A stretch of DNA of 64,000 bases from Eubacteriales bacterium (GTDB taxonomy: Bacteria > Bacillota > Clostridia > Oscillospirales > CAG-382). Below the pieces are notes generated by a model that was not told where the DNA came from, did no database searches, and worked only from the letters and a program-made list of their open reading frames with translations. This document shows, in pieces, positions 5,534 through 59,953 of the stretch (positions are counted from its first letter, which is position 1; each line of letters begins with the position of its first letter). Where the stretch lies: positions 21,484 to 85,483 of the forward strand of contig JAZPZV010000020.1 of the NCBI GenBank assembly GCA_045544855.1, written 5' to 3'. Position numbers and translations under genes: made by a program.

Positions 5534-5684
5534 CGTTCCGTTGGATGATCTCATGCGCCTTTACGACGAAGGCACTACCCTGGTAAAGGCTTGTACGGAG
5601 AAGATCACCGCCGCCGAGCAGAAGGTACGCCTGGTGCAGATGAAGAACGGCACCGTCACCGAGGAGGCGTTTGAAGGACAATGA
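5463..5684 (+). CDS. xseB: Exodeoxyribonuclease VII small subunit
   Basis: 73 aa with TFEQALARLEQIVKELEGGNVPLDDLMRLYDEG, typical of XseB. The stop overlaps the ispA start (ATGA). Confidence 0.85.
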   Translation: MEEMTFEQALARLEQIVKELEGGNVPLDDLMRLYDEGTTLVKACTEKITAAEQKVRLVQMKNGTVTEEAFEGQ

Positions 5685-6574
5685 GCTTGTTTGCTACACG
5701 GTTGTCCGACCACGCGGCCTTGGCCAACAAAGCCCTGGCAACGCTGTTGCCCTCCCGTGAGGACGGGTACGATAAGATCCTGCGGGAGGCCATGGCCTAT
5801 TCCGTTGAAAACGGCGGAAAGCGGCTTAGGGCCCATCTGGTGATGGAATTCTGCGAGCTTTGCGGCGGCAATAGGGAGGCTTGTCTCCCCTACGCCGCAG
5901 GCATTGAGATGATGCACGCATTCTCTTTGATCCACGACGATCTCCCCTGCATGGATAACGATACCCTGCGGAGAGGAAAGCCCACCAACCACGTGGTATA
6001 CGGCGAATCCACCGCCCTTTTGGCGGGAGACGCTTTGTCCCTGCTGGCATTGGAGACGGTGGCAAACAATCCGTCCTGCAACGATGCCGAGAATCTTGCG
6101 GCGGTGAAGCTGTTGGCTTCCTATGCCGGATGCTTTGGGATGTGCGGAGGACAGCAGATCGATCTGCAAAGCGAAAACAAGCAGATCTCCATGGAAGAGT
6201 TAGAGGCTCTGGTAAACAAAAAGACGGGTGCGCTTTTTGCCGCCGCCTGCGAGCTGGGGTGCATTGCCGCCGGCAATGACGAAAAGCGGCGGGAATTGGC
6301 AAATCGGTTCGGTTTGACCACCGGGCTGGCTTTCCAGATCGCAGACGATCTTTTGGATCTCCGTGCAGATATATCCACTTTGGGAAAGACTCCCGGGAAG
6401 GATGCGGAAAGCGGGAAATCCACCTTCGTTTCCCTTTTGGGGGAAGCGGAGGCTTACGACTATGCGTCCACCCTTTGCAAGAAAGCAAAGGAGCTGTTGG
6501 ACGGCTTTGGCGACAGCGAGGCAAAGGAATCGCTGTGTGCCTATTGTGATTACATCATCACAAGAACTTATTGA
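5681..6574 (+). CDS. ispA: Farnesyl/geranylgeranyl diphosphate synthase
   Basis: First Asp-rich motif IHDDLPCMDNDTLRRGKPT and second motif FQIADDLLD. Confidence 0.9.
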   Translation: MSLFATRLSDHAALANKALATLLPSREDGYDKILREAMAYSVENGGKRLRAHLVMEFCELCGGNREACLPYAAGIEMMHAFSLIHDDLPCMDNDTLRRGKPTNHVVYGESTALLAGDALSLLALETVANNPSCNDAENLAAVKLLASYAGCFGMCGGQQIDLQSENKQISMEELEALVNKKTGALFAAACELGCIAAGNDEKRRELANRFGLTTGLAFQIADDLLDLRADISTLGKTPGKDAESGKSTFVSLLGEAEAYDYASTLCKKAKELLDGFGDSEAKESLCAYCDYIITRTY

Positions 6575-6579
6575 CGCAG

Positions 6580-7190
6580 ATCTACGCAGGGTGACCTGCC
6601 TGATCATAAACCTGAAAAGATGGCGCAGTATCCTAGTTAACCAAGTACCGTCGAACGTGTGCCTAAAAACGCACGAAACGGCAAATCGATGAAGCTCCTT
6701 GTGCTTGCTTCTTACGCCCAGTCTGGGGTGGGTGCTGGGAGAAATGGGCCGGTGGGCCGCTCGCAATGGCATGCGATACAAGGTCCCAACGGCTTTGGAG
6801 GCTTTTTTCTGTGGGCACGGAATTGACCGTTTCACCTACAGTCTAAAGATTAAACCCATTACGCGGTGCGATGTTTTCGACGCTGTGGATGGTGTAGCCC
6901 GCCTTGAGTGAGTGCAGCGGATGATCTTCCCTCTTTGGGGAATTTCTGAAATTGTAGTTGCAAAAAAGGATTAGGCGGCGCGAGGTTATTGAGGAAATCT
7001 CCTAGGCTGAAAATCACAGGCGCGAAGCGGATTGCAGTGCGGACTCTCTTAGGCAATCAAGCCCCGGATACAGTAATGTACCGGCGTCGGTTTTAATGGG
7101 GAACCGCCTTTCGGTAACGGAAGGTAACCGCATCGGGGAAAACCTGCTTGACCGTATGCCGCAAAGTTTACGCTTCGCGTCGCCATCAAT
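6580..7190 (+). ncRNA. ole: Probable OLE-class large non-coding RNA (boundaries approximate)
   Basis: About 610 nt with no credible ORF between ispA and an oapA-like gene. The order xseB-ispA-gap-oapA-dxs-tlyA-nadK-argR-recN matches the published OLE locus. Local stems are visible. Not verified with a covariance model. Confidence 0.6.
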
Positions 7191-7191
7191 G

Positions 7192-7746
7192 TCGCTTCGC
7201 TCTCACTGCGAAGCACACGGCTTCGCAGTGATTTTCGCCCTGCTTCCGCGCAGGGCGGGCCCCTCACGGGGTTCGCAACAAGTTGCGAATTTTTCTCGCT
7301 CGTTAGCCACGGCGAGAAAAACTGTTATCGGTGTCTTTTCATGCGGAATGAATCCGCATGAGCGACGCAATTATTATCGCTTCGCTCTCACTGCGAAGCG
7401 CACGGCTTCGCAGTGATTTACACGTCCCTTCCGCGGGACGTGAGCCCCTCACGGGGTTCGCAACAAGTTGCGAATTTTTCTCGCTCGTTAGCCACGGCGA
7501 GAAAAACTGTTATCGGTGTCTTTTTGCCCGAAATGAATTCGGGCAAGCGACGCAATTATTATCGCTTCGCTCTCACTGCGAAGCGCACGGCTTCGCAGTG
7601 ATTTTCGCCCTGCTTCCGCGCAGGGCGGGCCCCTTACGGGGTTCGCACTACGTGCGAATTTTTCTCGCTCGTTAACCACGGCGAGAAAAACTGTTATCGG
7701 TGTCTTTTTGCCCGAAATGAATTCGGGCAAGCGACGCAATTATTTA
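7192..7746. repeat. Three tandem 185-bp units, each built of six hairpins
   Basis: Unit starts (TCGCTTCGCTCTCACTGCGAAGC) at 7192, 7377 and 7562. Stems of hairpins B, D and F differ between units by compensated changes. Confidence 0.95.
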
Positions 7747-7769
7747 TATGCGCTACGCGCGTTAAGGGA

Positions 7770-7848
7770 CTTCCCGAAAACGGTAGTTTTCGGCAGGGAA
7801 AGTTTTTTGGAGTTTTTAAGGACCTTTTTTTCAAAAAAGGTTCTTAAG
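7770..7848. repeat. Two-module palindromic element (CCGAAAAC-N4-GTTTTCGG plus AAGGACCTTTTTT/AAAAAAGGTTCTT)
   Basis: Hairpins at 7774-7793 and 7816-7848. The same two modules recur at 16126, 34562/34620 and 49218/49326. Confidence 0.8.
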
Positions 7849-7876
7849 AAAGGGTCTGAAGAAAAGGATTATCAAA

Positions 7877-8449
7877 ATGTCTATATTGAAGAAAAACAAC
7901 GAATCGGGGAAAGAGCCTCCCAGTAAAAAGGATGCGAAAAAAAAGAGCAGGGTAAGATGGGTCGTAACGGCATTTCTTGTGAGCTTTGTCATCTCTGCCG
8001 TGTTTTCGGTAACTATGGGAGAGGTCACGGCGAACGCCAACATTGTCGTTGCCATTTTACTGCTGCTTTTCTTTATTGCGCTGGGTATTTTGTTTGACGT
8101 AGTGGGACTTGCCGTGGCAACGGCGGATGCCTCCCCCTTCCACTCCATGGCGGCAAGAAAGCTCCGTGCGGGGAAAAAGGGTGTTTGGCTGGTGGCCAAC
8201 TCCGACAAGGTGTCCTCGGTGTGTAACGACATCGTGGGTGATATCTGCGGCGTCGTGACGGGTGCGGCGGGTGCCGCCATCGTTGCCAAGCTGTTTGCCG
8301 ACGGGGCGTTTTGGTACTCCCTGGCGGTGACCTCCCTGATCTCCGCCATCACGGTAGGAGGCAAGGCGGCCTGCAAGAACTTTGCCATGAAGCACAGCGA
8401 AAACATCGTCATGCTGGTGGCAAAGGCTATGTGTTTGTTCAGAAAATAA
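7877..8449 (+). CDS. oapA: OapA-like small multi-pass membrane protein (OLE-associated protein candidate)
   Basis: 190 aa with a Lys-rich N-terminus followed by about four hydrophobic helices. Sits between the OLE-like gap and dxs. Named from synteny only. Confidence 0.6.
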   Translation: MSILKKNNESGKEPPSKKDAKKKSRVRWVVTAFLVSFVISAVFSVTMGEVTANANIVVAILLLLFFIALGILFDVVGLAVATADASPFHSMAARKLRAGKKGVWLVANSDKVSSVCNDIVGDICGVVTGAAGAAIVAKLFADGAFWYSLAVTSLISAITVGGKAACKNFAMKHSENIVMLVAKAMCLFRK

Positions 8450-17714: not shown

Positions 17715-20321
17715 GTGAAGAAGACGTTATCTTTGGTTCTTTGCCTTGCTTTGCTTTCGGTGGTGTGTCCCGTCTTTTTCACCGAAGAAGCCGTGGCGTG
17801 CGGACCGTACCCGGGGGAATCGTATTACGAACAAGGGTATGAAGAGTATGAAAACGGCAGATATTCCTGTGCCGTTAAGGGAGACGAGGCGGTTCTGCTG
17901 CATTACAAGGGCGTCTTTGGCCAAACGGAGATCGTTGTGGATGCCAATATCGGTCCCTACAAGCTGGTTGAGATCGCCGACAACGCCTTTGAGGGTTGCG
18001 GCGCCAAGCGGGTGGTGATTCCCGAGGGCGTAGTGGAAATGGGCGATGGGGTATTTGAACAAAGCTCTGTGGAAGAGATCGTTCTCCCGAACAGCTTGCG
18101 GGTCATTCACGGTGCATTCACCAACATGGATCAGATTGAGAAAATCGTGATCCCCGAGGGTGTGGAGGAACTGTACGACACGGTGTTCTCCAACTGCGAG
18201 AAGCTGAAGGAAGTGACCCTGCCTTCCACGCTGAAAAGCGTTGTAAATCTGTTCAGCAATTGTCCTTCCATAGAGACTGTGGTGTTGCCGGAAGGCTTGG
18301 AAGTCATGGACGGCTACGTTTTCTATTTGTGCGACAGCGCAAAATCTCTTATCATTCCTTCCACGGTACGTTCTATGAGCTACGCTCCCGTGGTAGGCTG
18401 CGACAGCTTTGAATCGTTGTCTGTAGCCCCGGGAAATGAAAACGTAAAGCTGGAAAACGGATGCCTCATCACCTCCGAGGGAGTGTTGGTGCAAGGCTTC
18501 TCGGGATGTGTGATCCCCACGGAGGGGTTGGCTGCCATTGGCGGCAGTGCCTTCTACCACGCAGATTGGCTGGAAGAGATCACCATTCCCCACGGCGTGA
18601 CATCCATCGGCGCAGGTGCTTTTATCGGATGTAATAACTTGACCAAGGTAGTTCTGCCCCGGGGGCTTACACAGATAGGAGTATCCGCATTCTCCGGCTG
18701 TAAGGCTTTGAAAGAGGTCGCGCTTCCCGACAGCGTTGAAAGCATTGGAGACACTGCCTTCACCGGCTGTAAGCAGCTGGATCTGAAGATGCCGGCCGGC
18801 TTGAAGTCTGTGGGGGAAAGCGCATTCAGAAACACAGCCATTACCTCCGCCATCTTCCCCGAAACACTGGAATTTCTGGGAGAACAAGCGTTAAGAGATT
18901 GCGAGCAGTTGGAAGTCCTTCATCTTCCCGCAGGGCTGAAGAGCCTGCCTTGGCTGCTCACCTCAGGATGCACAAATGTGAAGGAGCTGGTATTACCTGC
19001 CGGCTTGGAAACCTACGAGCCGGGTTCGTTCAGCTATATGCCCAATCTGCAGAAAGCGGAGCTGGACGAGAGCAATCCCAACTTCTATTTGAACGGCTTC
19101 TGCCTGATGAGTAGAGACGGCACGCTTTTGGCGGCGCTCTCAGGTGGCGATATCCCGAAAGAGACGAAGGTTATCGGCAAGCAAGCCTTCCGGCACTTTG
19201 TTCAACATGAGCCCCTGTTCCTTCCCGAAGGCGTGGAACGCTTGGCATCGCAGGCTTTCGACCAAGCGGACGTACCTGAGATCGTTTTGCCCGCCTCGTT
19301 GAAAATAATTGATGATTATGCGTTTTATTATGCAAATATCGAAAGCCTTTACATTCCCGCCACGGTAGAGGATATGGGATATAATCTGTGTCAGGGCTGC
19401 TTCTACCTACGTCAGGTGGATATGGGATATGAGAAAAAACCCGACGGATGGGAGGACAGAATGACGCTGAGCTTTGGCGGACGAGTTGTCTGGAACGTAA
19501 ACTCCCGCCGCACAGACATCTATAAGGTCAGCGGTGATTTCCGATACGAGATAGTAGATGGCGAAGCTCATATCGTAGAGTATCTGGGCGATGCCACCGA
19601 GTTGGTGATCCCCGAGACCATCGACGGCTACAAGGTAACGGTATTGGGAATGAAAGCATTGGAAGATCAAGCTAAGCTTACTTCCATCACCTTGCCGAAC
19701 ACCATCCATACTCTCGAAAGGAATTCCATTGATGGTTGCGCTTCCTTAAAGGAGCTGATTCTTCCCAACAGCGTAAAGACTCTGAAACACTGTGCCATTT
19801 GGGACTGCGAAAGCTTGGAATACGTATATATCCCCAATGTGACAACGGTGGGATCCCAAGCCATTGACTATTGCACTAACCTGAAAAAGGTGGAGTGTGC
19901 GCCCACAAAACAACCTGCTTCTTGGGACGATCGCTGGCACGGTTACGTTTCCGAGATCGAGATCGTTTGGGGCGTTCCCCATCCCAATGAGGAGGATCCT
20001 GTGGATCCGCCCGTGGAGCCGATTGATCCGCCGGAGGTTTCGGAGGAAGTGAGCGAAGAGGTTTCCGAAGAGGTTTCGGAAGAAGTTTCGGAGGAAGTTT
20101 CCGAGGAAGAATCTGTGGAAGTTTCCGAGGAAGAATCCGAAGCGGTCTCCGAAGAAGAATCTGCGGCAAGCGAGGAGGAACAGACGTCCTCTGCCGAAAG
20201 CATCGCGGAAAGCGAGACGGAAGAGCCTGCAAAGGGCAGCTTCCCCTGGATTCCCGTGGGGATCGCCGTGGTATTGGTTGCCGCTGTGGCGGTGATCTTG
20301 GTTATCAGAAAAAAGAAATAA
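17715..20321 (+). CDS. BspA-type leucine-rich-repeat surface protein 1 with acidic EVSE linker and C-terminal TM anchor
   Basis: Probable GTG start 8 nt after AAAGGAG. Signal peptide, then many IPEGV..IG..AF..C..L..V.LP repeats. Tail is (EVSE)n plus TM plus RKKK. Confidence 0.85.
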   Translation: MKKTLSLVLCLALLSVVCPVFFTEEAVACGPYPGESYYEQGYEEYENGRYSCAVKGDEAVLLHYKGVFGQTEIVVDANIGPYKLVEIADNAFEGCGAKRVVIPEGVVEMGDGVFEQSSVEEIVLPNSLRVIHGAFTNMDQIEKIVIPEGVEELYDTVFSNCEKLKEVTLPSTLKSVVNLFSNCPSIETVVLPEGLEVMDGYVFYLCDSAKSLIIPSTVRSMSYAPVVGCDSFESLSVAPGNENVKLENGCLITSEGVLVQGFSGCVIPTEGLAAIGGSAFYHADWLEEITIPHGVTSIGAGAFIGCNNLTKVVLPRGLTQIGVSAFSGCKALKEVALPDSVESIGDTAFTGCKQLDLKMPAGLKSVGESAFRNTAITSAIFPETLEFLGEQALRDCEQLEVLHLPAGLKSLPWLLTSGCTNVKELVLPAGLETYEPGSFSYMPNLQKAELDESNPNFYLNGFCLMSRDGTLLAALSGGDIPKETKVIGKQAFRHFVQHEPLFLPEGVERLASQAFDQADVPEIVLPASLKIIDDYAFYYANIESLYIPATVEDMGYNLCQGCFYLRQVDMGYEKKPDGWEDRMTLSFGGRVVWNVNSRRTDIYKVSGDFRYEIVDGEAHIVEYLGDATELVIPETIDGYKVTVLGMKALEDQAKLTSITLPNTIHTLERNSIDGCASLKELILPNSVKTLKHCAIWDCESLEYVYIPNVTTVGSQAIDYCTNLKKVECAPTKQPASWDDRWHGYVSEIEIVWGVPHPNEEDPVDPPVEPIDPPEVSEEVSEEVSEEVSEEVSEEVSEEESVEVSEEESEAVSEEESAASEEEQTSSAESIAESETEEPAKGSFPWIPVGIAVVLVAAVAVILVIRKKK

Positions 20322-20355: not shown

Positions 20356-22971
20356 GTGAAGAAGACGTTATGTTTGGTTCTTTGCCTTGCTTTGCTTTCG
20401 GTGGTGTGTCCCGTCTTTTTCACCGAAGAAGCCGTGGCGTGCGAGGGAGACGATTGGGGTGACAGATACCGCGAAGACGGATACGCAATAGAAGAGTTTG
20501 GAGACTACCGCCTTGCCATCAAGGACGGCGAGGCTACCCTGCTGGAATATTACGGATGGGAAAAAGACATCGTTATAGAGGCGGAAGTGGGCGGCTATCC
20601 CATCGTGGAAATTGATTCCATGGCTTTTGCCTACACCGTCCCGGAGACCCTTGTGATCCCGGAGGGTGTGAAAGAGATCGGCGGGTTCTATTTCTACAAC
20701 GGATTTGATTTAAGAGAGATCACCCTGCCCTCCACTCTGCGGGTCATCCACGGCGGGTTTGACGGCTGTGATGCCGTAGAGAAGATGGTGATCCCCGAGG
20801 GCGTGGAGGAAATGCACGGAACGGCTTTCTCTTATTGCGAAAAGCTGAAGGAAGTGGTTCTGCCCTCTACCCTGAAAAAAGTGGGCGGCTTGTTCATTGA
20901 ATGTCCCTACGTGGAAACCGTACTTCTCCCCGAGGGGCTGGAAGAAATCACAGGGATCATCTTCTACGACTGCGCCAACGCAAAATCGGTGGAGATCCCC
21001 TCCACGGTGAAGCACATGACCCACGCCCCTGTGGTGCGCTGTGAAAAGTTTGAAGAGCTGACTTTTGCCCCCGGGAATGAGTACCTACGGATGGAAAACA
21101 ACTGTCTGATCACCGCCGACGGCGTACTGTTGCAAGGCTACGAGGGCAGTTCCGTCCCCGCCGAGGGGATCACCGCCATCGGTGCTTACGCTTTCTGCTA
21201 CGCCGACTGGCTGACGGAAGCCATTTTGGGGGATGAGGTCACCTCCGTGGGAACCTGGGCGTTTTTGGGTTGTGAGAACCTGACCAAGGTCAGCCTTCCG
21301 GAAGGGATCACTGCAATTGAATCCCAGACCTTTCAAAGCTGCACGTCTCTGGCGGAATTCCGGATGCCTTCCACCGTTACAAAGATCGGTTCCTTTGCTT
21401 TCCACAAGTGCAAGGAGCTGTCCCACGTAGACTTCCCTCCCGCTTTGGAGGAGCTGGGAAGAAGTGCGTTCAACAATTCCGGCATCACCTCCGCCATCCT
21501 GCCGGATACCATCACAAGCTTGGGTACGGAAGTTTTTTACGGCTGTAAGAATCTGGAAACTCTGCGGCTCCCCGCCGGTCTGCCCGATCTGGGGGAAAGC
21601 TTGCTTTCCGGTTGCTCCAATTTGAAGGAGCTGGCGCTTCCCGAAGGAATTACCTCCATCGATCGCTTTGCTTTAAGCAATTTGGAGAAGCTGGAGAAGC
21701 TGCATTTGCCCTCCACCCTGGTAAACGTGGAAGGCGACTCCTTCGGAGCCATTCCCAATCTGAAGGAGCTGACGGTTGCGGAAGGCAATCCCGTTTTGTA
21801 TACAGAAGGTCCCTTCCTGATGAACAAAGACGGTACCTTGGTGCGTGCCTTTGCTTATGGGGAGCTGCCCGAGGGGATCACCACCATTGGCGGATACGCC
21901 TTCTACAACTGCTCCGGCTGGGACGTGTTTACCGTTCCCGAGGGTGTGGTCACCATTGAGGAGCACGCTTTCTACAGCGCCGCCGTGAACAGGATCGACC
22001 TACCCCGAAGCTTGAAAGAAATCGGGCAGTGCGCCTTCTCCCGTGCGGAGATCAAAAGCATCTTCCTGCCTGCTACCATCCAATCGCTGGACTATGACGT
22101 ATTTGAGCTTTGTTCTTGTTTGGCCACGATCTACGCAGAGCCTGCGGAACGCCCCTCCTTCTGGGCCAGTTGGGACGGTGACTTCAAGGGAACCGTGGTA
22201 TGGGGAGCAACGGGAATTCCCGATGACAACTTCCTGCGTAGCGGCGACTACCTCTACGATATCGTAGGAGACGGCGTCAGCATCCGCGCCTATCTGGGCG
22301 AAGCAACGGAGATCACGATTCCCCCGGAGCTGGGCGGATTGCCTGTGATCCAATTAGGAAACGGCGCATTCACGGAACAGCAGGCTTTGGTTTCCATTAA
22401 ACTGCCGGACACCTTGAAGCGCGTGGGCGACCAAGCATTCCAATACTGCTCCTCCCTTAAGGAGCTGGTCTTCCCGGACGGCGTGGAATACATCGGCAGA
22501 GACGCATTGTTCAGCTGTAACAGCCTGGAATATGTTTATTTGCCCGATGCGGACGTGGTCGGCACCGATGCAGTCTCCTATTGCCGTGAATTGAAGGTGG
22601 TGGAATGTGCGCCCAAGGAACAGCCTGCCGGATGGTCTTTGCGGTGGTACGCTGCGCTCCCCGCCGCCCAAATCGTTTGGGGCGTGAACGAGGAAGAACC
22701 CGTTGAGCCTCCCGTTGAGCCGGTTGACCCGCCGGAGGTAAGCGAGGAAGTGAGTGAAGAGGTCTCGGAGGAAGTTTCCGAAGAGGTTTCCGAGGAAGTG
22801 TCCGAAGAAGAAAGCGCCGAAGCAAGCGTGGAGGAACAGGTATCCTCCGCCTCCGGCGAGACGGTGAGTGAAACGGAAGAGTCCGACGGAGAGTTCCCCA
22901 AGATATGGATCGTTGTCATTGCGATTTTGGTTGCCATGGCAGTGGCCATCGTGATTTTGAGAAAGAAGTAA
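20356..22971 (+). CDS. BspA-type leucine-rich-repeat surface protein 2 (paralog)
   Basis: Same GTG start context and signal peptide as gene 1 and collinear LRR body. The track ORFs are 874 codons in both genes. Confidence 0.85.
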   Translation: MKKTLCLVLCLALLSVVCPVFFTEEAVACEGDDWGDRYREDGYAIEEFGDYRLAIKDGEATLLEYYGWEKDIVIEAEVGGYPIVEIDSMAFAYTVPETLVIPEGVKEIGGFYFYNGFDLREITLPSTLRVIHGGFDGCDAVEKMVIPEGVEEMHGTAFSYCEKLKEVVLPSTLKKVGGLFIECPYVETVLLPEGLEEITGIIFYDCANAKSVEIPSTVKHMTHAPVVRCEKFEELTFAPGNEYLRMENNCLITADGVLLQGYEGSSVPAEGITAIGAYAFCYADWLTEAILGDEVTSVGTWAFLGCENLTKVSLPEGITAIESQTFQSCTSLAEFRMPSTVTKIGSFAFHKCKELSHVDFPPALEELGRSAFNNSGITSAILPDTITSLGTEVFYGCKNLETLRLPAGLPDLGESLLSGCSNLKELALPEGITSIDRFALSNLEKLEKLHLPSTLVNVEGDSFGAIPNLKELTVAEGNPVLYTEGPFLMNKDGTLVRAFAYGELPEGITTIGGYAFYNCSGWDVFTVPEGVVTIEEHAFYSAAVNRIDLPRSLKEIGQCAFSRAEIKSIFLPATIQSLDYDVFELCSCLATIYAEPAERPSFWASWDGDFKGTVVWGATGIPDDNFLRSGDYLYDIVGDGVSIRAYLGEATEITIPPELGGLPVIQLGNGAFTEQQALVSIKLPDTLKRVGDQAFQYCSSLKELVFPDGVEYIGRDALFSCNSLEYVYLPDADVVGTDAVSYCRELKVVECAPKEQPAGWSLRWYAALPAAQIVWGVNEEEPVEPPVEPVDPPEVSEEVSEEVSEEVSEEVSEEVSEEESAEASVEEQVSSASGETVSETEESDGEFPKIWIVVIAILVAMAVAIVILRKK

Positions 22972-24320: not shown

Positions 24321-24390
24321 CTTTCAAAAATCAAAGAAAATGAAAGAAAATCAAAGAAAATCGAAAAAAATTCAAAAAAGTTTGAAAAAC
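24321..24390 (+). promoter_or_regulatory. Phased A-tract array (UP-element-like) upstream of the rplM promoter
   Basis: Seven consecutive 10-mers of the form NAAAGAAAAT, so exactly 10-bp period. Confidence 0.6.
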
Positions 24391-34561: not shown

Positions 34562-34639
34562 GTTAAGAACCTTTCTTTGAAAAGAAAGGTTCTTAACAAT
34601 CTCCAAAGAAACCTCATTGCCGAAAACTGTCGTTTTCGG
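34562..34639. repeat. Two-module palindromic element (17-bp-arm AAGAACCTTTCTTT palindrome plus CCGAAAAC-N4-GTTTTCGG)
   Basis: Arms 34562-34578/34581-34597 are perfect. The second hairpin is at 34620-34639. Confidence 0.85.
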
Positions 34640-34933
34640 GGGAAATGAAAAAGCCGGTGCAATCTCACTTTCATTGCCTCGGCTTTTATCAATAGGAACC
34701 TCATCCACCGTTTGCGGGGGATGAAGAAGGTTCTTTTCCTGCTTTATACTCCCCGCAACGGTCCTCCTTCCCCAGAGGGGAAGGCAAAAACTCCCTTTCG
34801 GGAGTTGGAAATTGTCGTATGCCCCTGCGGGGCGGAACTAAGATCGTCTATTCTCTCGCCATGATTTATGGCTGTGCACGATTGAACGCTTTTTGCGCAC
34901 GCCGTAGGCGGATGAGGTTCCTTCGCTTTTGAA

Positions 34934-49217: not shown

Positions 49218-49400
49218 CGAGAGAAACCTTTTTTGTAAAAAAGGTTTCTCTCGTGCTCTTTTCCAAAAAACTTTTCATGCAAAAGAACCTTCCGCAAAAG
49301 CAGAAGGTTCTTTGTGTTTTTTCTCCCCAAAACGACAGTTTTGGGCAATGGGTTTTCTTTTTTGTTAAACTTTTTTCTTTTTCCGAAAAGAAAAAAGTTT
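49218..49400. repeat. Four consecutive palindromic hairpins in a convergent intergenic region
   Basis: Hairpins at 49218-49253, 49282-49312, 49326-49345 and 49367-49400, with near-perfect arms of 8-16 nt. Confidence 0.85.
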
Positions 49401-49411
49401 AGTTGCTCCCC

Positions 49412-53509: not shown

Positions 53510-55453
53510 TTATGCTTTCTTTTTCTTGAAGATAGGCAGGAGCACCACGGCCAGTACGATCACTGCGGCGACGATGGCGATCCAAAGCCAAGTGCCGCCA
53601 TCTTCCTCGGCCTGCTGTGCGGCAGAAGATTCCGCGGGGGCAGAGGACTCGGGTTGGGATTCCGCAGGGGTGGACTCTGCGGGAGATTCCGTAGAAGACT
53701 CCTCGGGTGCAGACTCTTCGGGTGCAGACTCCTCGGGGGTGGATTCCTCCGGCTTGGATTCCTCGGGCTTGGATTCCTCGGGGGTGGAGGTATCGGGGGT
53801 AAAGCCCTCCTTCACGCCTACCAGGAATTCCGAGCAGAACACGAAATTACCTCCCGCCACGCCGAAGGACATCTTCACGTATCTTGCGGTGACGGGTGCG
53901 GTTTCGAACTTGATGCAGGAATCCTTGGAATCCATGATCTGCAGAGGAGTGGTCAGCAAGCGGAAATTTCTGCCGTCCTCGGAAATATAGAGGTTGATCC
54001 CCGTGGGAGAACCGATGCCGTAATCCAAACGGTTATCGAAATGGGCGTAGAAGTGGGTCAGGTCGTTGCGAACCTCCCCAAGGTCGATGGTGACGCTCAT
54101 TTTACCGTCGCTGTCCAGCAGGGAGTGGTGGTATGCGTGCCAATCGGTGCTGAGGGGGGTGTCGGCGAGGATGCCGTCGGTAAGCTCCTTGCCGTCCACC
54201 TGTTGATACTCTGCGCCGTTGCCGTCCACGTAGGATCTGCTGGCGGTATACTTCTTACCGATGGAGATCCAATCCACGTCGGGTGCTTTGAGAGAATCTC
54301 TGCCGATATCGTCCACCACGATATAGCCGTTTTCCGTCTGCTCGGGACGGACGGCATCGATATCCGCCTGTGTCAGGGTCTTCTTGGCGTATTTGTAGGT
54401 GAGGTCGTAGACCAGACGGTAACGCTCGTCGGTGGAATAGCAGGCCTTGTAATACACGGCGGTCTTACCGTCCTGGTAATACATCTTCACGGCGTTCATC
54501 ATGGAAGAATTCAACCCGCCCTCCAGATAGTTCAGATATCTGGCGAAGTATTCGTCGGTGTAAACTCTGCCGTCACATTCCATTTCCATGGAAAGACCGT
54601 ACTGTTCGGAGGCGGCTATGCTGGCCTTCACACGGGTGGGGTCGTTGTAGCCGATCCACATCAGGTTGGGCTGCATACAAGCCACGTCGAAGCCGAAGCT
54701 TTCCCAACGCTCGTAGCCGTTGGCCTTGTACCAAGGGATCCAGATGAACTTCAATCCCTTGGAATGGAGGTAGTCTGCGGCGTACTTCAGGATCTCGGCA
54801 TCATCCCCTGCGGCGATGTACTCCTCCAGCCAATAGAAGCCCACCAGATCCAGATTCTTGTAGCCTCGCTGTTCAAAACGGGAGATCTGTTCGTCGATCA
54901 TCCATTTGACGGCGTACTTTCTGTCTTCCATTTTGGAAAAGTTCAGACTTCTGCCCCCCAGAGTGCCGAAGTTGGTCGCTCTCTTGCCGGGGTACAAAAG
55001 GGTGAAGAACACGCCCGCCTTGCTGTCCGTGTTTCCCAAAGCCGCCTTGGTGGTGCCGTAAGCCTTTTCCAAGGCGTCTACGTTTGCCCCTGCGGCAAAG
55101 GTATCGTCCACGTAGGAGGTCCAGTCGATGGCCTTGGTGGGGTTGCCTTCATCCAAATGCATCCTCGCCCCGGAGGGACCGTAGTCCATGCAGGGCAGGA
55201 ACAGGTAGCTGTCGAAGAAAAAGTCCTTGATATTGCCCTTGGTATCCAGATAAGCGGTGTAGGGCAAAAGGTCCTTTTCGTAATGTCTGCCGTTGTCCGC
55301 ACCGGAGCGGCGGAAGGTATAGGTGAGACAGACGTTCTCGTAGCCCTCCAGATCGTCGGCGGTGGGGACCTTGGTTGCTGCGGCCGGCTGAATGCACAAC
55401 AGCAAGGGCAACACCAGCAGAACCGTTAAGGTGATAGAAAGAATTCTTTTCAT
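53510..55453 (-). CDS. Secreted DUF4855-like/discoidin-like domain protein with PEES linker and C-terminal TM anchor
   Basis: Signal MKRILSITLTVLLVLPLLLC. The functional name is tentative. Tail is (PEES) repeats plus GGTWLWIAIVAAVIVLAVVLLPIFKKKKA. Confidence 0.7.
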   Translation of the reverse strand: MKRILSITLTVLLVLPLLLCIQPAAATKVPTADDLEGYENVCLTYTFRRSGADNGRHYEKDLLPYTAYLDTKGNIKDFFFDSYLFLPCMDYGPSGARMHLDEGNPTKAIDWTSYVDDTFAAGANVDALEKAYGTTKAALGNTDSKAGVFFTLLYPGKRATNFGTLGGRSLNFSKMEDRKYAVKWMIDEQISRFEQRGYKNLDLVGFYWLEEYIAAGDDAEILKYAADYLHSKGLKFIWIPWYKANGYERWESFGFDVACMQPNLMWIGYNDPTRVKASIAASEQYGLSMEMECDGRVYTDEYFARYLNYLEGGLNSSMMNAVKMYYQDGKTAVYYKACYSTDERYRLVYDLTYKYAKKTLTQADIDAVRPEQTENGYIVVDDIGRDSLKAPDVDWISIGKKYTASRSYVDGNGAEYQQVDGKELTDGILADTPLSTDWHAYHHSLLDSDGKMSVTIDLGEVRNDLTHFYAHFDNRLDYGIGSPTGINLYISEDGRNFRLLTTPLQIMDSKDSCIKFETAPVTARYVKMSFGVAGGNFVFCSEFLVGVKEGFTPDTSTPEESKPEESKPEESTPEESAPEESAPEESSTESPAESTPAESQPESSAPAESSAAQQAEEDGGTWLWIAIVAAVIVLAVVLLPIFKKKKA

Positions 55454-58642: not shown

Positions 58643-59953
58643 TTAGTTCAAAGTGATCACGGGGATCTTGGCGTAGTCGTTTCTGCCGATGATACCGCCG
58701 CCGTTACGGTAGGTGATGTTCTTCCAAACGTTCTTGGAAACGTCGCTTTCGTTGGTGGAGTTCACGGAGAAGGTCAGACCCATTTCGGTGCCCTTCTCGG
58801 GAGTCACACCCAGCTCTGCGAAGGAAACAGCAACCTCGTAAACGGTGATCTGCTCGCCGTCGTCACGGGAGCAAGCAACCTGTGCGTCGGTAACGCCGTA
58901 GAAGCAGGTATCACCGCTGTCGTTTACTGCAAATCCGGAGGAAATAACCACCTTCTCGTTATCGGCAGTCTTGTCGATCACGCGGTCAAAGTGCTCGGAG
59001 ATGTATTCCCCTGCAGGGCTTTCGGAGGAGAACTTCACCTGGATGCACTCGTACTGCCACATATCCCCCGCCTTATCCTGGGTGATGGGGCAATAGTGAT
59101 AGGGAGACTGTACCACCACGCAGAGATACAGATAGGTATCGTCGTAGGTCACGTAGTAGTCTGCGGTGGCGTAGTAGTTGTCCTTCTCGAACTGAGCGTA
59201 GGACCAAGCCTCGTTCTCTGCATCGATGTGGTCGATGAAATACTTGTCCCATTCGCCTTCGGTAAAGGTACCGTCGATGGTGGGAGCGGTGTCGGCCTTG
59301 TCTACCTCGTAGTCAACGCCGTCGTAGAGATGGAGACCGTGGGGGAACACGGTGGTGCCGTCGGCAACGTCCTTGGCACGGGTGATGTAAGTTTCCTGAT
59401 AAGAATGGATAGCGATCAGGAAGCCGTCCTCATCGGCGATAACTTCCTCAGCCTCGCCAACCTCGTAGAAGGCGGTCTTCACGTAGCCGAAATACTCGTG
59501 ATCGTAGGTGAACGCAACCACGGCGAAGTCAGCCAGCTCCTCGGCATCCAGCAGACCGTATTCCTCGGTGTAGAGGATCACGGCGCCGTAAGAGGGCTCA
59601 ACGTCCACGCCGGTCAAAGGAATGGCGTTGGAGCTTGTGGCGCGGTCGTTCACGGTAACGGTGCCGATGGAGACGAACTTGTTGATGGTCTCGGGAGGGG
59701 TCTGCTCACCGGGATCTTCGGTGGAAGTATCCTCGGAAGGCTCCTCGGAGGGTTCTTCGGAAGGCTCTTCGGAAGGTGCCTCAGAGGGGTTTACGGCCTC
59801 GGAGGATGCTTCCTCGGAAGAAACGGGGGCTTCACTGCTAACGGGAGCGGAAGAGGAAGCGGTGTTGCTTGTTTCTTCGGTCTCGCCGCAGGCTGCCAGA
59901 GCGAATACCATGACAGCTGCCAGCAGAAGGGTCAGAAATCTTTTCATTTTCAT
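58643..59953 (-). CDS. Lipoprotein with CBM9/DOMON-like C-terminal domain (tentative)
   Basis: Lipobox FALAACGE, a Ser/Glu/Pro linker, then IDGTFTEGEWD...YLYLCVVV... Confidence 0.65.
   Translation of the reverse strand: MKMKRFLTLLLAAVMVFALAACGETEETSNTASSSAPVSSEAPVSSEEASSEAVNPSEAPSEEPSEEPSEEPSEDTSTEDPGEQTPPETINKFVSIGTVTVNDRATSSNAIPLTGVDVEPSYGAVILYTEEYGLLDAEELADFAVVAFTYDHEYFGYVKTAFYEVGEAEEVIADEDGFLIAIHSYQETYITRAKDVADGTTVFPHGLHLYDGVDYEVDKADTAPTIDGTFTEGEWDKYFIDHIDAENEAWSYAQFEKDNYYATADYYVTYDDTYLYLCVVVQSPYHYCPITQDKAGDMWQYECIQVKFSSESPAGEYISEHFDRVIDKTADNEKVVISSGFAVNDSGDTCFYGVTDAQVACSRDDGEQITVYEVAVSFAELGVTPEKGTEMGLTFSVNSTNESDVSKNVWKNITYRNGGGIIGRNDYAKIPVITLN

Follow-up and report, generated by a model that had tools for sequence, protein, structure and literature searches.

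BOX elements of Streptococcus pneumoniae (boxA-boxB(n)-boxC) are modular, intergenic, structured repeats of a Gram-positive genome in which the number of internal modules varies. The ERIC (IRU) elements and the bcr1-type elements of Bacillus cereus are MITE-like intergenic repeats of 100-160 nt that are transcribed together with neighboring genes and for which compensatory changes support a folded RNA, and the MIRU-type VNTRs of mycobacteria are dispersed intergenic units that are oriented as the flanking genes, occur in tandem and vary in copy number between relatives. A REP is a single imperfect palindrome, 20-40 nt in length and with a conserved head; a genome contains more than 100 of them, and within BIMEs their orientation alternates (PMC2817692). 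Here we describe a new dispersed, modular hairpin repeat that, in the best reading of these likenesses, appears to work most like the REP/BIME, BOX, ERIC/bcr1 or MIRU systems, although it departs from each of them in the testable features that define it, namely unit size and architecture, alternating orientation, terminal inverted repeats (TIR) and target duplications (TSD), and coupled ORFs.

The window analyzed here, a 64-kb stretch of DNA from a Eubacteriales bacterium, contains an OLE locus with the gene order rluB-xseB-ispA-OLE-[array]-oapA-dxs-tlyA, in which xseB-ispA-OLE-oapA-dxs-tlyA is the usual OLE neighborhood and the array of repeats occupies the spacer between OLE and oapA. The OapA proteins are CNNM-related, carry the DxxxD motif as a hallmark and are usually encoded beside ole (PMC11332333). 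The features of this region, in window coordinates, are:

5681-6574, + strand: ispA-like polyprenyl synthetase gene, upstream of OLE.
6604-7202, + strand: full-length OLE RNA gene (Rfam RF01071, matched over model positions 1-616 of 616 with 361.7 bits; gathering score 50).
7192-7376, + strand: unit 1, with leader CGCTTCGCTCTCAC and tail AGCGACGCAATTATTA; hairpins A 7203-7231, B 7236-7257 (allele CGCCCTGC), C 7260-7271, D 7272-7289, E 7290-7321 and F 7339-7361 (allele TCATGCGGA), all + strand.
7377-7561, + strand: unit 2; hairpins A 7388-7416, B 7421-7442 (allele CACGTCCC), C 7445-7456, D 7457-7474, E 7475-7506 and F 7524-7546 (allele TTGCCCGAA), all + strand.
7562-7746, + strand: unit 3; hairpins A 7573-7601, B 7606-7627 (CGCCCTGC), C 7630-7641, D 7642-7658 (allele TTCGCAC-TAC-GTGCGAA), E 7659-7690 and F 7708-7730 (TTGCCCGAA), all + strand.
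7750-7760, + strand: hairpin G, seen in the sequence as GCGC-TAC-GCGC, which closes the last unit.
7773-7850, + strand: module H, a second dispersed repeat, with H1 (CCGAAAAC-ggta-GTTTTCGG, 7774-7793) and H2 (a long A/T-rich hairpin, 7813-7850).
7877-8449, + strand: oapA (OLE-associated protein A; Pfam PF01595 and homologues), encoding a CNNM-like product with a DIVGD (DxxxD) motif.

Tandem Repeats Finder detects a single array at 7192-7744 with a period of 185, 3.0 copies and 89% matches, in agreement with the three tandem 185-bp units that had been recognized from the sequence alone. Given that the Rfam match to OLE (6604-7202) lies on the same strand, the array begins at the 3' tail of OLE, which extends into unit 1; the sequence-only reading made no mention of the adjoining OLE RNA or of the dispersed family described below. 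The 185-bp units themselves produced no OLE (RF01071) hit, even at E <= 10, and a scan of positions 6500-7950 against Rfam 15 returned, besides OLE, only chance-level hits (E 0.4-9, far under the gathering scores) and no match to the units, in line with the earlier remark that no named family corresponds to them. Neither pattern searches nor an nhmmer profile built from 31 copies detected other 185-bp copies in the 64-kb window outside 7192-7746.

One unit consists of a short leader (CGCTWCGC..TCAC), the hairpins A to F, a conserved tail (AGCGACGCAAtt.ATTGTA) and the small closing hairpin G. Hairpin G occurs in covarying versions in other copies (TCGC-tac-GCGA and CCCC-tgc-GGGG); at the internal junctions of the array, the leader of the next unit, CGCTTCGC, stands in its place, and the leader motif CGCTWCGC resembles G. 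An inverted-repeat search showed that the arms of A, B, D, E and F are 100% complementary in all three units, and hairpin C is directly visible in the sequence as CCCC-N4-GGGG, so that all hairpins listed previously are perfect inverted repeats; one correction is that the A stem comprises 12 bp (TCACTGCGAAGC/GCTTCGCAGTGA, with a 5-nt loop) rather than 11. The remaining stems are 8 bp in B (6-nt loop), 8 bp in D, 10 bp in E and 9 bp in F (5-nt loop). The units are 87-91% identical to each other, and of their 30 variable columns, the 101 stem positions account for 23 and the 84 non-stem positions for 7. The B and F alleles differ at 5 of 8 and 5 of 9 stem positions, respectively, with identical loops, exactly as described before, and the units do differ mostly inside stems; the stronger statement that every change is compensated applies to the stem changes but not to the seven changes in loops, linkers or an indel. 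The hairpin A pattern has a chance expectation of 0.00 occurrences in the window, and one unit with its flank folds at -98.6 kcal/mol vs -63.9 +/- 4.1 kcal/mol for shuffled sequences (z = -8.6). With regard to terminal inverted repeats, the sole inverted match is internal, between GCTTCGCT in the leader and AGCGACGC in the tail (7/8).

The array is neither OLE-specific nor unique to this site. The base of hairpin E was used to scan a genome collection, and blastn and nhmmer searches with the units came next; the copy numbers per genome are lower bounds. A metagenome scan contributed 7 further copies. The 185-bp unit is a member of an intergenic repeat family that is modular, rich in hairpins and dispersed in uncultured Clostridia of the rumen and gut. 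This family is previously undescribed; in the literature, we found nothing on repeats after OLE nor on a comparable repeat in Clostridia. True homologues are present on several contigs within one MAG (for example, at the OLE locus and on three other contigs of GCA_045612545.1), with at least 4 unit-carrying loci per MAG, as counted from 8-kb loci. At least 11 loci with the unit are unrelated to OLE. They include sites after an acidic DUF1292-like gene and upstream of 6S RNA, upstream of a tRNA-Ser pair, after polC, between gyrB and gyrA, after an fba-like gene, between pepP and efp, and several further sites, and the genes that flank the dispersed copies are functionally unrelated. None of the non-OLE insertion loci lies within the 64-kb window, hence there are no orthologous empty sites in it. 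Searches of plasmid and phage collections (blastn) and of viral contigs (pattern scan) gave no match to the unit.

The element is oriented as the upstream gene in 12 of 12 loci and in 13 of 14 arrangements; the exception is an inverted copy at the 6S locus (L082, 5034-5232; loci are denoted by L numbers), which ends 6 nt before the 6S RNA gene and where the usual upstream module is absent. The distance between the stop codon and the element is 0-5 nt in 8 loci, which is usual at the protein-coding loci, and 12-17 nt separate the stop codon from the hairpin A stem. For comparison, terminating ribosomes of E. coli are stalled by REP hairpins that lie within 15 nt of the stop codon (PMC12306157). 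At several loci, the 5' part of the element together with a locus-specific flank is directly repeated on either side of the B-F core, over 33-66 nt; the duplication takes in 27 nt of coding sequence at L142 and the -35 box of efp at L146. At the loci compared, neither a short target duplication of fixed length nor a terminal inverted repeat was found. The L142 copy also carries, at ~5560-5600, an insertion of ~24 nt in the tip of E that forms two more hairpins.

The compensated hairpins recur in the further copies. RNAalifold recovered hairpins A to F from 31 distinct copies that come from many loci and genomes, with 96.1% of the cells paired, compared to 83.6 +/- 0.5% when partners were shuffled (none of 500 shuffles reached the observed value) and 35-52% when partners were slid; double-sided changes were detected in 27 of the 52 pairs, in 233 cells of these 31 copies. 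The hairpins are multi-allelic, with 13 haplotypes of B, 16 of C, 17 of D, 16 of E and 12 of F and at least 10 stem types of A. By contrast, the B loop TTCCGC, the F loop (ATGAA or GTGAA), the linkers GCCCC/GGGGTT and the tail AGCGACGC are near-invariant, with rare single-base variants. The base of hairpin E and GGTGTCTTTT are invariant, which is partly a matter of ascertainment given that both served as search patterns, although the copies found via OapA also carry both. All four combinations of the two main B alleles with the two main F alleles exist, and the B hairpin of L136 joins arms from two different alleles, which do not pair, in support of the modular exchange proposed from the window alone. 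This reassortment of alleles indicates that the hairpins behave as exchangeable cassettes between conserved linkers, which accounts for the B/D/F mosaic of units 1 to 3.

The rate of evolution differs between loci. At the 6S locus (L047 vs L095) and at the L088 locus (L088 vs L138), the element differs by ~2% compared to ~31% at third codon positions of the upstream gene, and is thus under strong constraint. For the fba locus, the difference is 10-28% in stems and loops and 10-18% at third codon positions; here, stems have been replaced quickly.

With these data at hand, the comparison with the described systems can be made specific. Like REP/BIME elements, the unit is extragenic, hairpin-forming and dispersed, and occurs in mosaics with other modules (module H and a third module adjoin it); REPs, too, are often located in 3' UTRs near stop codons. 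The unit differs from these elements in that it is 185 nt long, combines seven different hairpins, is arranged head-to-tail and apparently has a low copy number; furthermore, its stems are perfectly paired and multi-allelic, and no gene for a RAYT, the Y1 transposase associated with REPs, is known for it. The modular, intergenic and structured character is shared with BOX elements but no sequence relationship was shown, and BOX elements are not known to form a chain of independent hairpins with invariant loops or to follow a rule of stop-codon adjacency. ERIC and bcr1 are each one long imperfect palindrome with terminal inverted repeats, with a short target duplication in bcr1 and with both orientations common in ERIC, whereas the unit is composed of many short hairpins and has neither a TIR nor a fixed TSD. 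Where MITEs are defined by a TIR and a short TSD of fixed length, the flank duplications found here are long and variable. MIRUs are 40-100 bp in size and are thought to carry small translationally coupled ORFs, in contrast to a 185-nt unit that varies by paired stem changes; a protein-coding repeat or a MIRU-like coupled ORF was rejected because 185 is no multiple of 3 and the variation is paired across stems rather than distributed by codon position. A CRISPR array, with constant 28-37-nt repeats and unique spacers, was likewise rejected since whole 185-nt units repeat and their variable parts are paired stem arms. Finally, an intrinsic terminator is a G+C-rich stem with a U-run directly behind it on the transcribed strand; the unit would come close to tandem terminators of this kind in hairpin A plus a U-run and hairpin D plus U5, which immediately follow the stop codon and lie on the strand of the upstream gene. 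Such terminators, however, are not conserved 185-nt cassettes with invariant loops, and in some copies of the unit, those of the window among them, hairpin A has a weak T-run behind it or none.

On the basis of these sequence comparisons, we give an even chance to the interpretation that the unit is a cis-acting, + strand 3'-end cassette with two terminator-like hairpins, which would have been spread and homogenized by recombination and amplified in tandem at OLE. Two of its hairpins would resemble intrinsic terminators, A with U3-7 behind it and D with the invariant AAUUUUUCUC, the remaining hairpins would protect or mark the 3' end of the RNA, and the cassette would insulate the upstream gene from the downstream gene. 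Between OLE and oapA, three units would supply six terminator-like hairpins which, if transcribed, may define the 3' ends of OLE and throttle read-through into oapA, with a possible effect on the OLE-to-oapA ratio. The tandem array could stem from unequal exchange between the leader CGCTWCGC and the matching motif in hairpin G, and the B/D/F mosaic from short-tract gene conversion among units and dispersed copies. The sequence-only reading had argued against a simple slippage duplication; since CGCTWCGC recurs as a short direct repeat at either end of the unit, and unequal exchange between such repeats can account for the tandem arrangement, this part of the argument is not supported and a duplication is still compatible with the data.

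Several features that are specific to the + strand speak for the 3'-end cassette, namely the gene-matched orientation, the T-runs after A and D and the C-to-U changes in the ACY/GGU helix, a weak helix of 3 bp in which such changes keep pairing in the + strand RNA alone. Hairpin A (-15 to -22.5 kcal/mol) is followed by a run of T3-T7 in most copies, which is T3-4 in the window and absent in some copies, and hairpin D (-9 to -10.6 kcal/mol) by an invariant T5; both runs are found on one strand only. Nevertheless, a simple consensus terminator scan flagged none of the A or D hairpins of the window, where A has just T3-4 and the D loop is short, and a pure terminator role leaves the invariant loops and linkers unexplained. 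In addition, efficient termination at six hairpins implies that oapA would need its own promoter, and the promoter scan found none on the + strand, which counts against the cassette. The only promoter-like matches inside the unit were two weak sigma-70-like sites (TTCGCA-16-AATAAT, 9/12) on the minus strand, which coincide with the internal unit junctions (7370-7397 and 7555-7582). An alternative pairing of the leader with hairpin A was considered as a general attenuator and rejected because it exists for the CACTGCGAAGC allele only.

The near-exclusive Watson-Crick pairing of the stems and the equal folding of both strands fit a DNA-level hairpin at least as well as the cassette. In hairpin A, 230 pairs are Watson-Crick, 1 is G-U and 3 are A-C; the B, E and F stems are ~99.6% paired, with G-U confined to chimeric or degenerate copies. 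The strand could be assigned neither from the counts of G-U vs A-C exceptions, which are about equally rare and show no strand asymmetry, nor from folding energy. Accordingly, the earlier inference of selection on structure, in RNA or cruciform DNA, is not the only reading: the hairpins covary, but the near absence of G-U is equally well explained by arm-to-arm correction at the DNA level. The main rival of the cassette, possible but on the whole doubtful, is therefore a DNA element whose hairpins matter as folded ssDNA or cruciforms, either in recognition by an HUH/Y1 enzyme or a tyrosine recombinase (as in REP/RAYT, IS200/IS605-derived PATEs or attC) or in the absorption of supercoils, with perfect pairing maintained by arm-to-arm template switching during replication, without selection on RNA. 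The near-pure Watson-Crick stems are to be expected from such template switching or from the requirement of a DNA hairpin or cruciform; the dispersal of the family, the inverted copy at the 6S locus, the long flanking duplications and the tandem amplification point in the same direction. Sites of HUH enzymes typically have conserved loops and variable stems. Template switching at quasipalindromes is also an established mutational mechanism (PMC7202029). Against a DNA element weigh the lack of both a fixed short target duplication and a terminal inverted repeat, the absence of an associated enzyme gene from all 8-kb loci looked at, and the strand-specific features listed above, of which the ACY/GGU helix is weak. 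Less probable is a structured RNA class in its own right, either a 3'-UTR element acting in cis or a small RNA, the invariant loops of which would be read by a protein partner and the dose of which would be raised by tandem copies. The strong covariation, the near-invariant B loop UUCCGC, F loop AUGAA, linkers and tail, the biased orientation and, at two loci, a conservation of the whole element ~15 times greater than that of synonymous sites are all consistent with an RNA class, but it is at odds with the lack of a conserved promoter within or upstream of the unit, the unrelated functions of the neighboring genes, the scarcity of G-U pairs, the absence of an Rfam match and the fba-locus element, which evolves as fast as synonymous sites or faster. 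Comparably improbable is a new mobile structured element in which the stems would be actively diversified and yet kept perfectly Watson-Crick, a dedicated protein would read the invariant loops, and the element would home to positions just after stop codons or the 3' ends of stable RNAs, making long target duplications, and would have been recruited in one clade as a functional 3' appendage of the OLE transcript.

Two more explanations are addressed by the OLE loci of relatives. The closest homologues of OapA (82-90% identity) are encoded in MAGs of ruminant and other gut samples, with the labels Clostridia or Eubacteriales, and the unit is present at the OLE locus of all relatives with OapA identity of at least 82%: one unit in L001, L117 and L152, two in L013, at least two in L009, L011 and L018, and three in the window. 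In L153, L155 and L156 (61-67% OapA identity), oapA follows OLE after ~30-75 nt, without a unit; the absence from more distant relatives indicates that the unit is an insertion into a normally short OLE-oapA spacer, restricted to one clade. That the units form a 3' extension of OLE RNA, serving as an accessory domain within the OLE ribonucleoprotein, is suggested by the start of the array at the OLE 3' tail and the retention of the unit in the close relatives. Furthermore, the 8-mers of the closing helix of OLE, GCGAAGCG/CGCTTCGC (7022-7029 and 7171-7178), recur in the unit leader (CGCTTCGC, 7193-7200) and in the 5' arm of hairpin A (GCGAAGC, 7207-7214), which could reflect competition between the units and the OLE helix for pairing or a mere coincidence of 8-mers. 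However, the OLE covariance model stops short of the units, and with the copies at non-OLE loci and the empty OLE loci, we reject an OLE-specific domain as very improbable. The least probable explanation is an assembly artefact or a simple recent slippage duplication without meaning. Such repeats do break the short-read assemblies of relatives, so that the copy number in any one assembly is uncertain: nearly all short-read contigs that carry the closest OapA homologues stop 30-670 nt upstream of oapA, inside unit copies (as at the contig ends among L002-L014), and OLE and oapA are therefore usually on separate contigs in short-read metagenome assemblies. The 87-91% identity among the window units shows, however, that these are neither collapsed nor expanded copies; independent samples contain one, two or more units with an identical junction; and in L013, the A, B, C, D and E stems are not the same in the two units, which hence are no recent slippage copies. 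In L152 (~2255-2300), hairpin F is split by a short insert with a hairpin of its own (ATCCGC-ttt-GCGGAT).

The OLE-oapA spacer as a whole is a mosaic of repeat modules, in which the 185-bp units are followed by module H, spanning the 130 nt after the array. Module H comprises a hairpin, CCGAAAAC-gaca-GTTTTCGG (covarying as CCCCAAAC/GTTTGGGG), followed by GGTTTCTTTGGAG and a long A/T-rich hairpin, TTAAGAACCTTTCTTTTC...GAAAGGTTCTTAA; further copies are located in the window at 34563-34641 (- strand) and 49325-49402 (+ strand), both between convergent genes, and at L082 (~6531) and L110/L144. Between the element and 6S RNA lies a third repeat, of ~155 nt and containing GGCTGTGAAAAGCCCTCTCGAAAATG, which is present once or twice in tandem (L047 ~610-745, L135, and L090 and L095 with two tandem copies each) and is absent from the window and from L082. 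Other short tandem repeats in the window, with periods of 10-36 nt (e.g., GAAGAAGTTTCC; 20034-20163, 22743-22810, 24326-24389, 53696-53788 and 59730-59776), probably encode low-complexity protein repeats.

The finding that ole and oapA, in most cases direct neighbors, can lie apart by ~690 nt of structured, terminator-like repeats of variable copy number provides a natural handle on the coupling of the two genes. For metagenomics, the family matters because short-read assemblies break in it at conserved housekeeping loci. Genome biology gains a well-defined repeat family of uncultured Clostridia that combines invariant loops, multi-allelic and strictly Watson-Crick stems, reassortment of hairpins and stop-codon adjacency, and that could help to tell RNA-level selection from palindrome correction at the DNA level. 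The significance of this family would be higher if its fast-swapping, Watson-Crick-only stems or its adjacency to stop codons reflect a dedicated mechanism.
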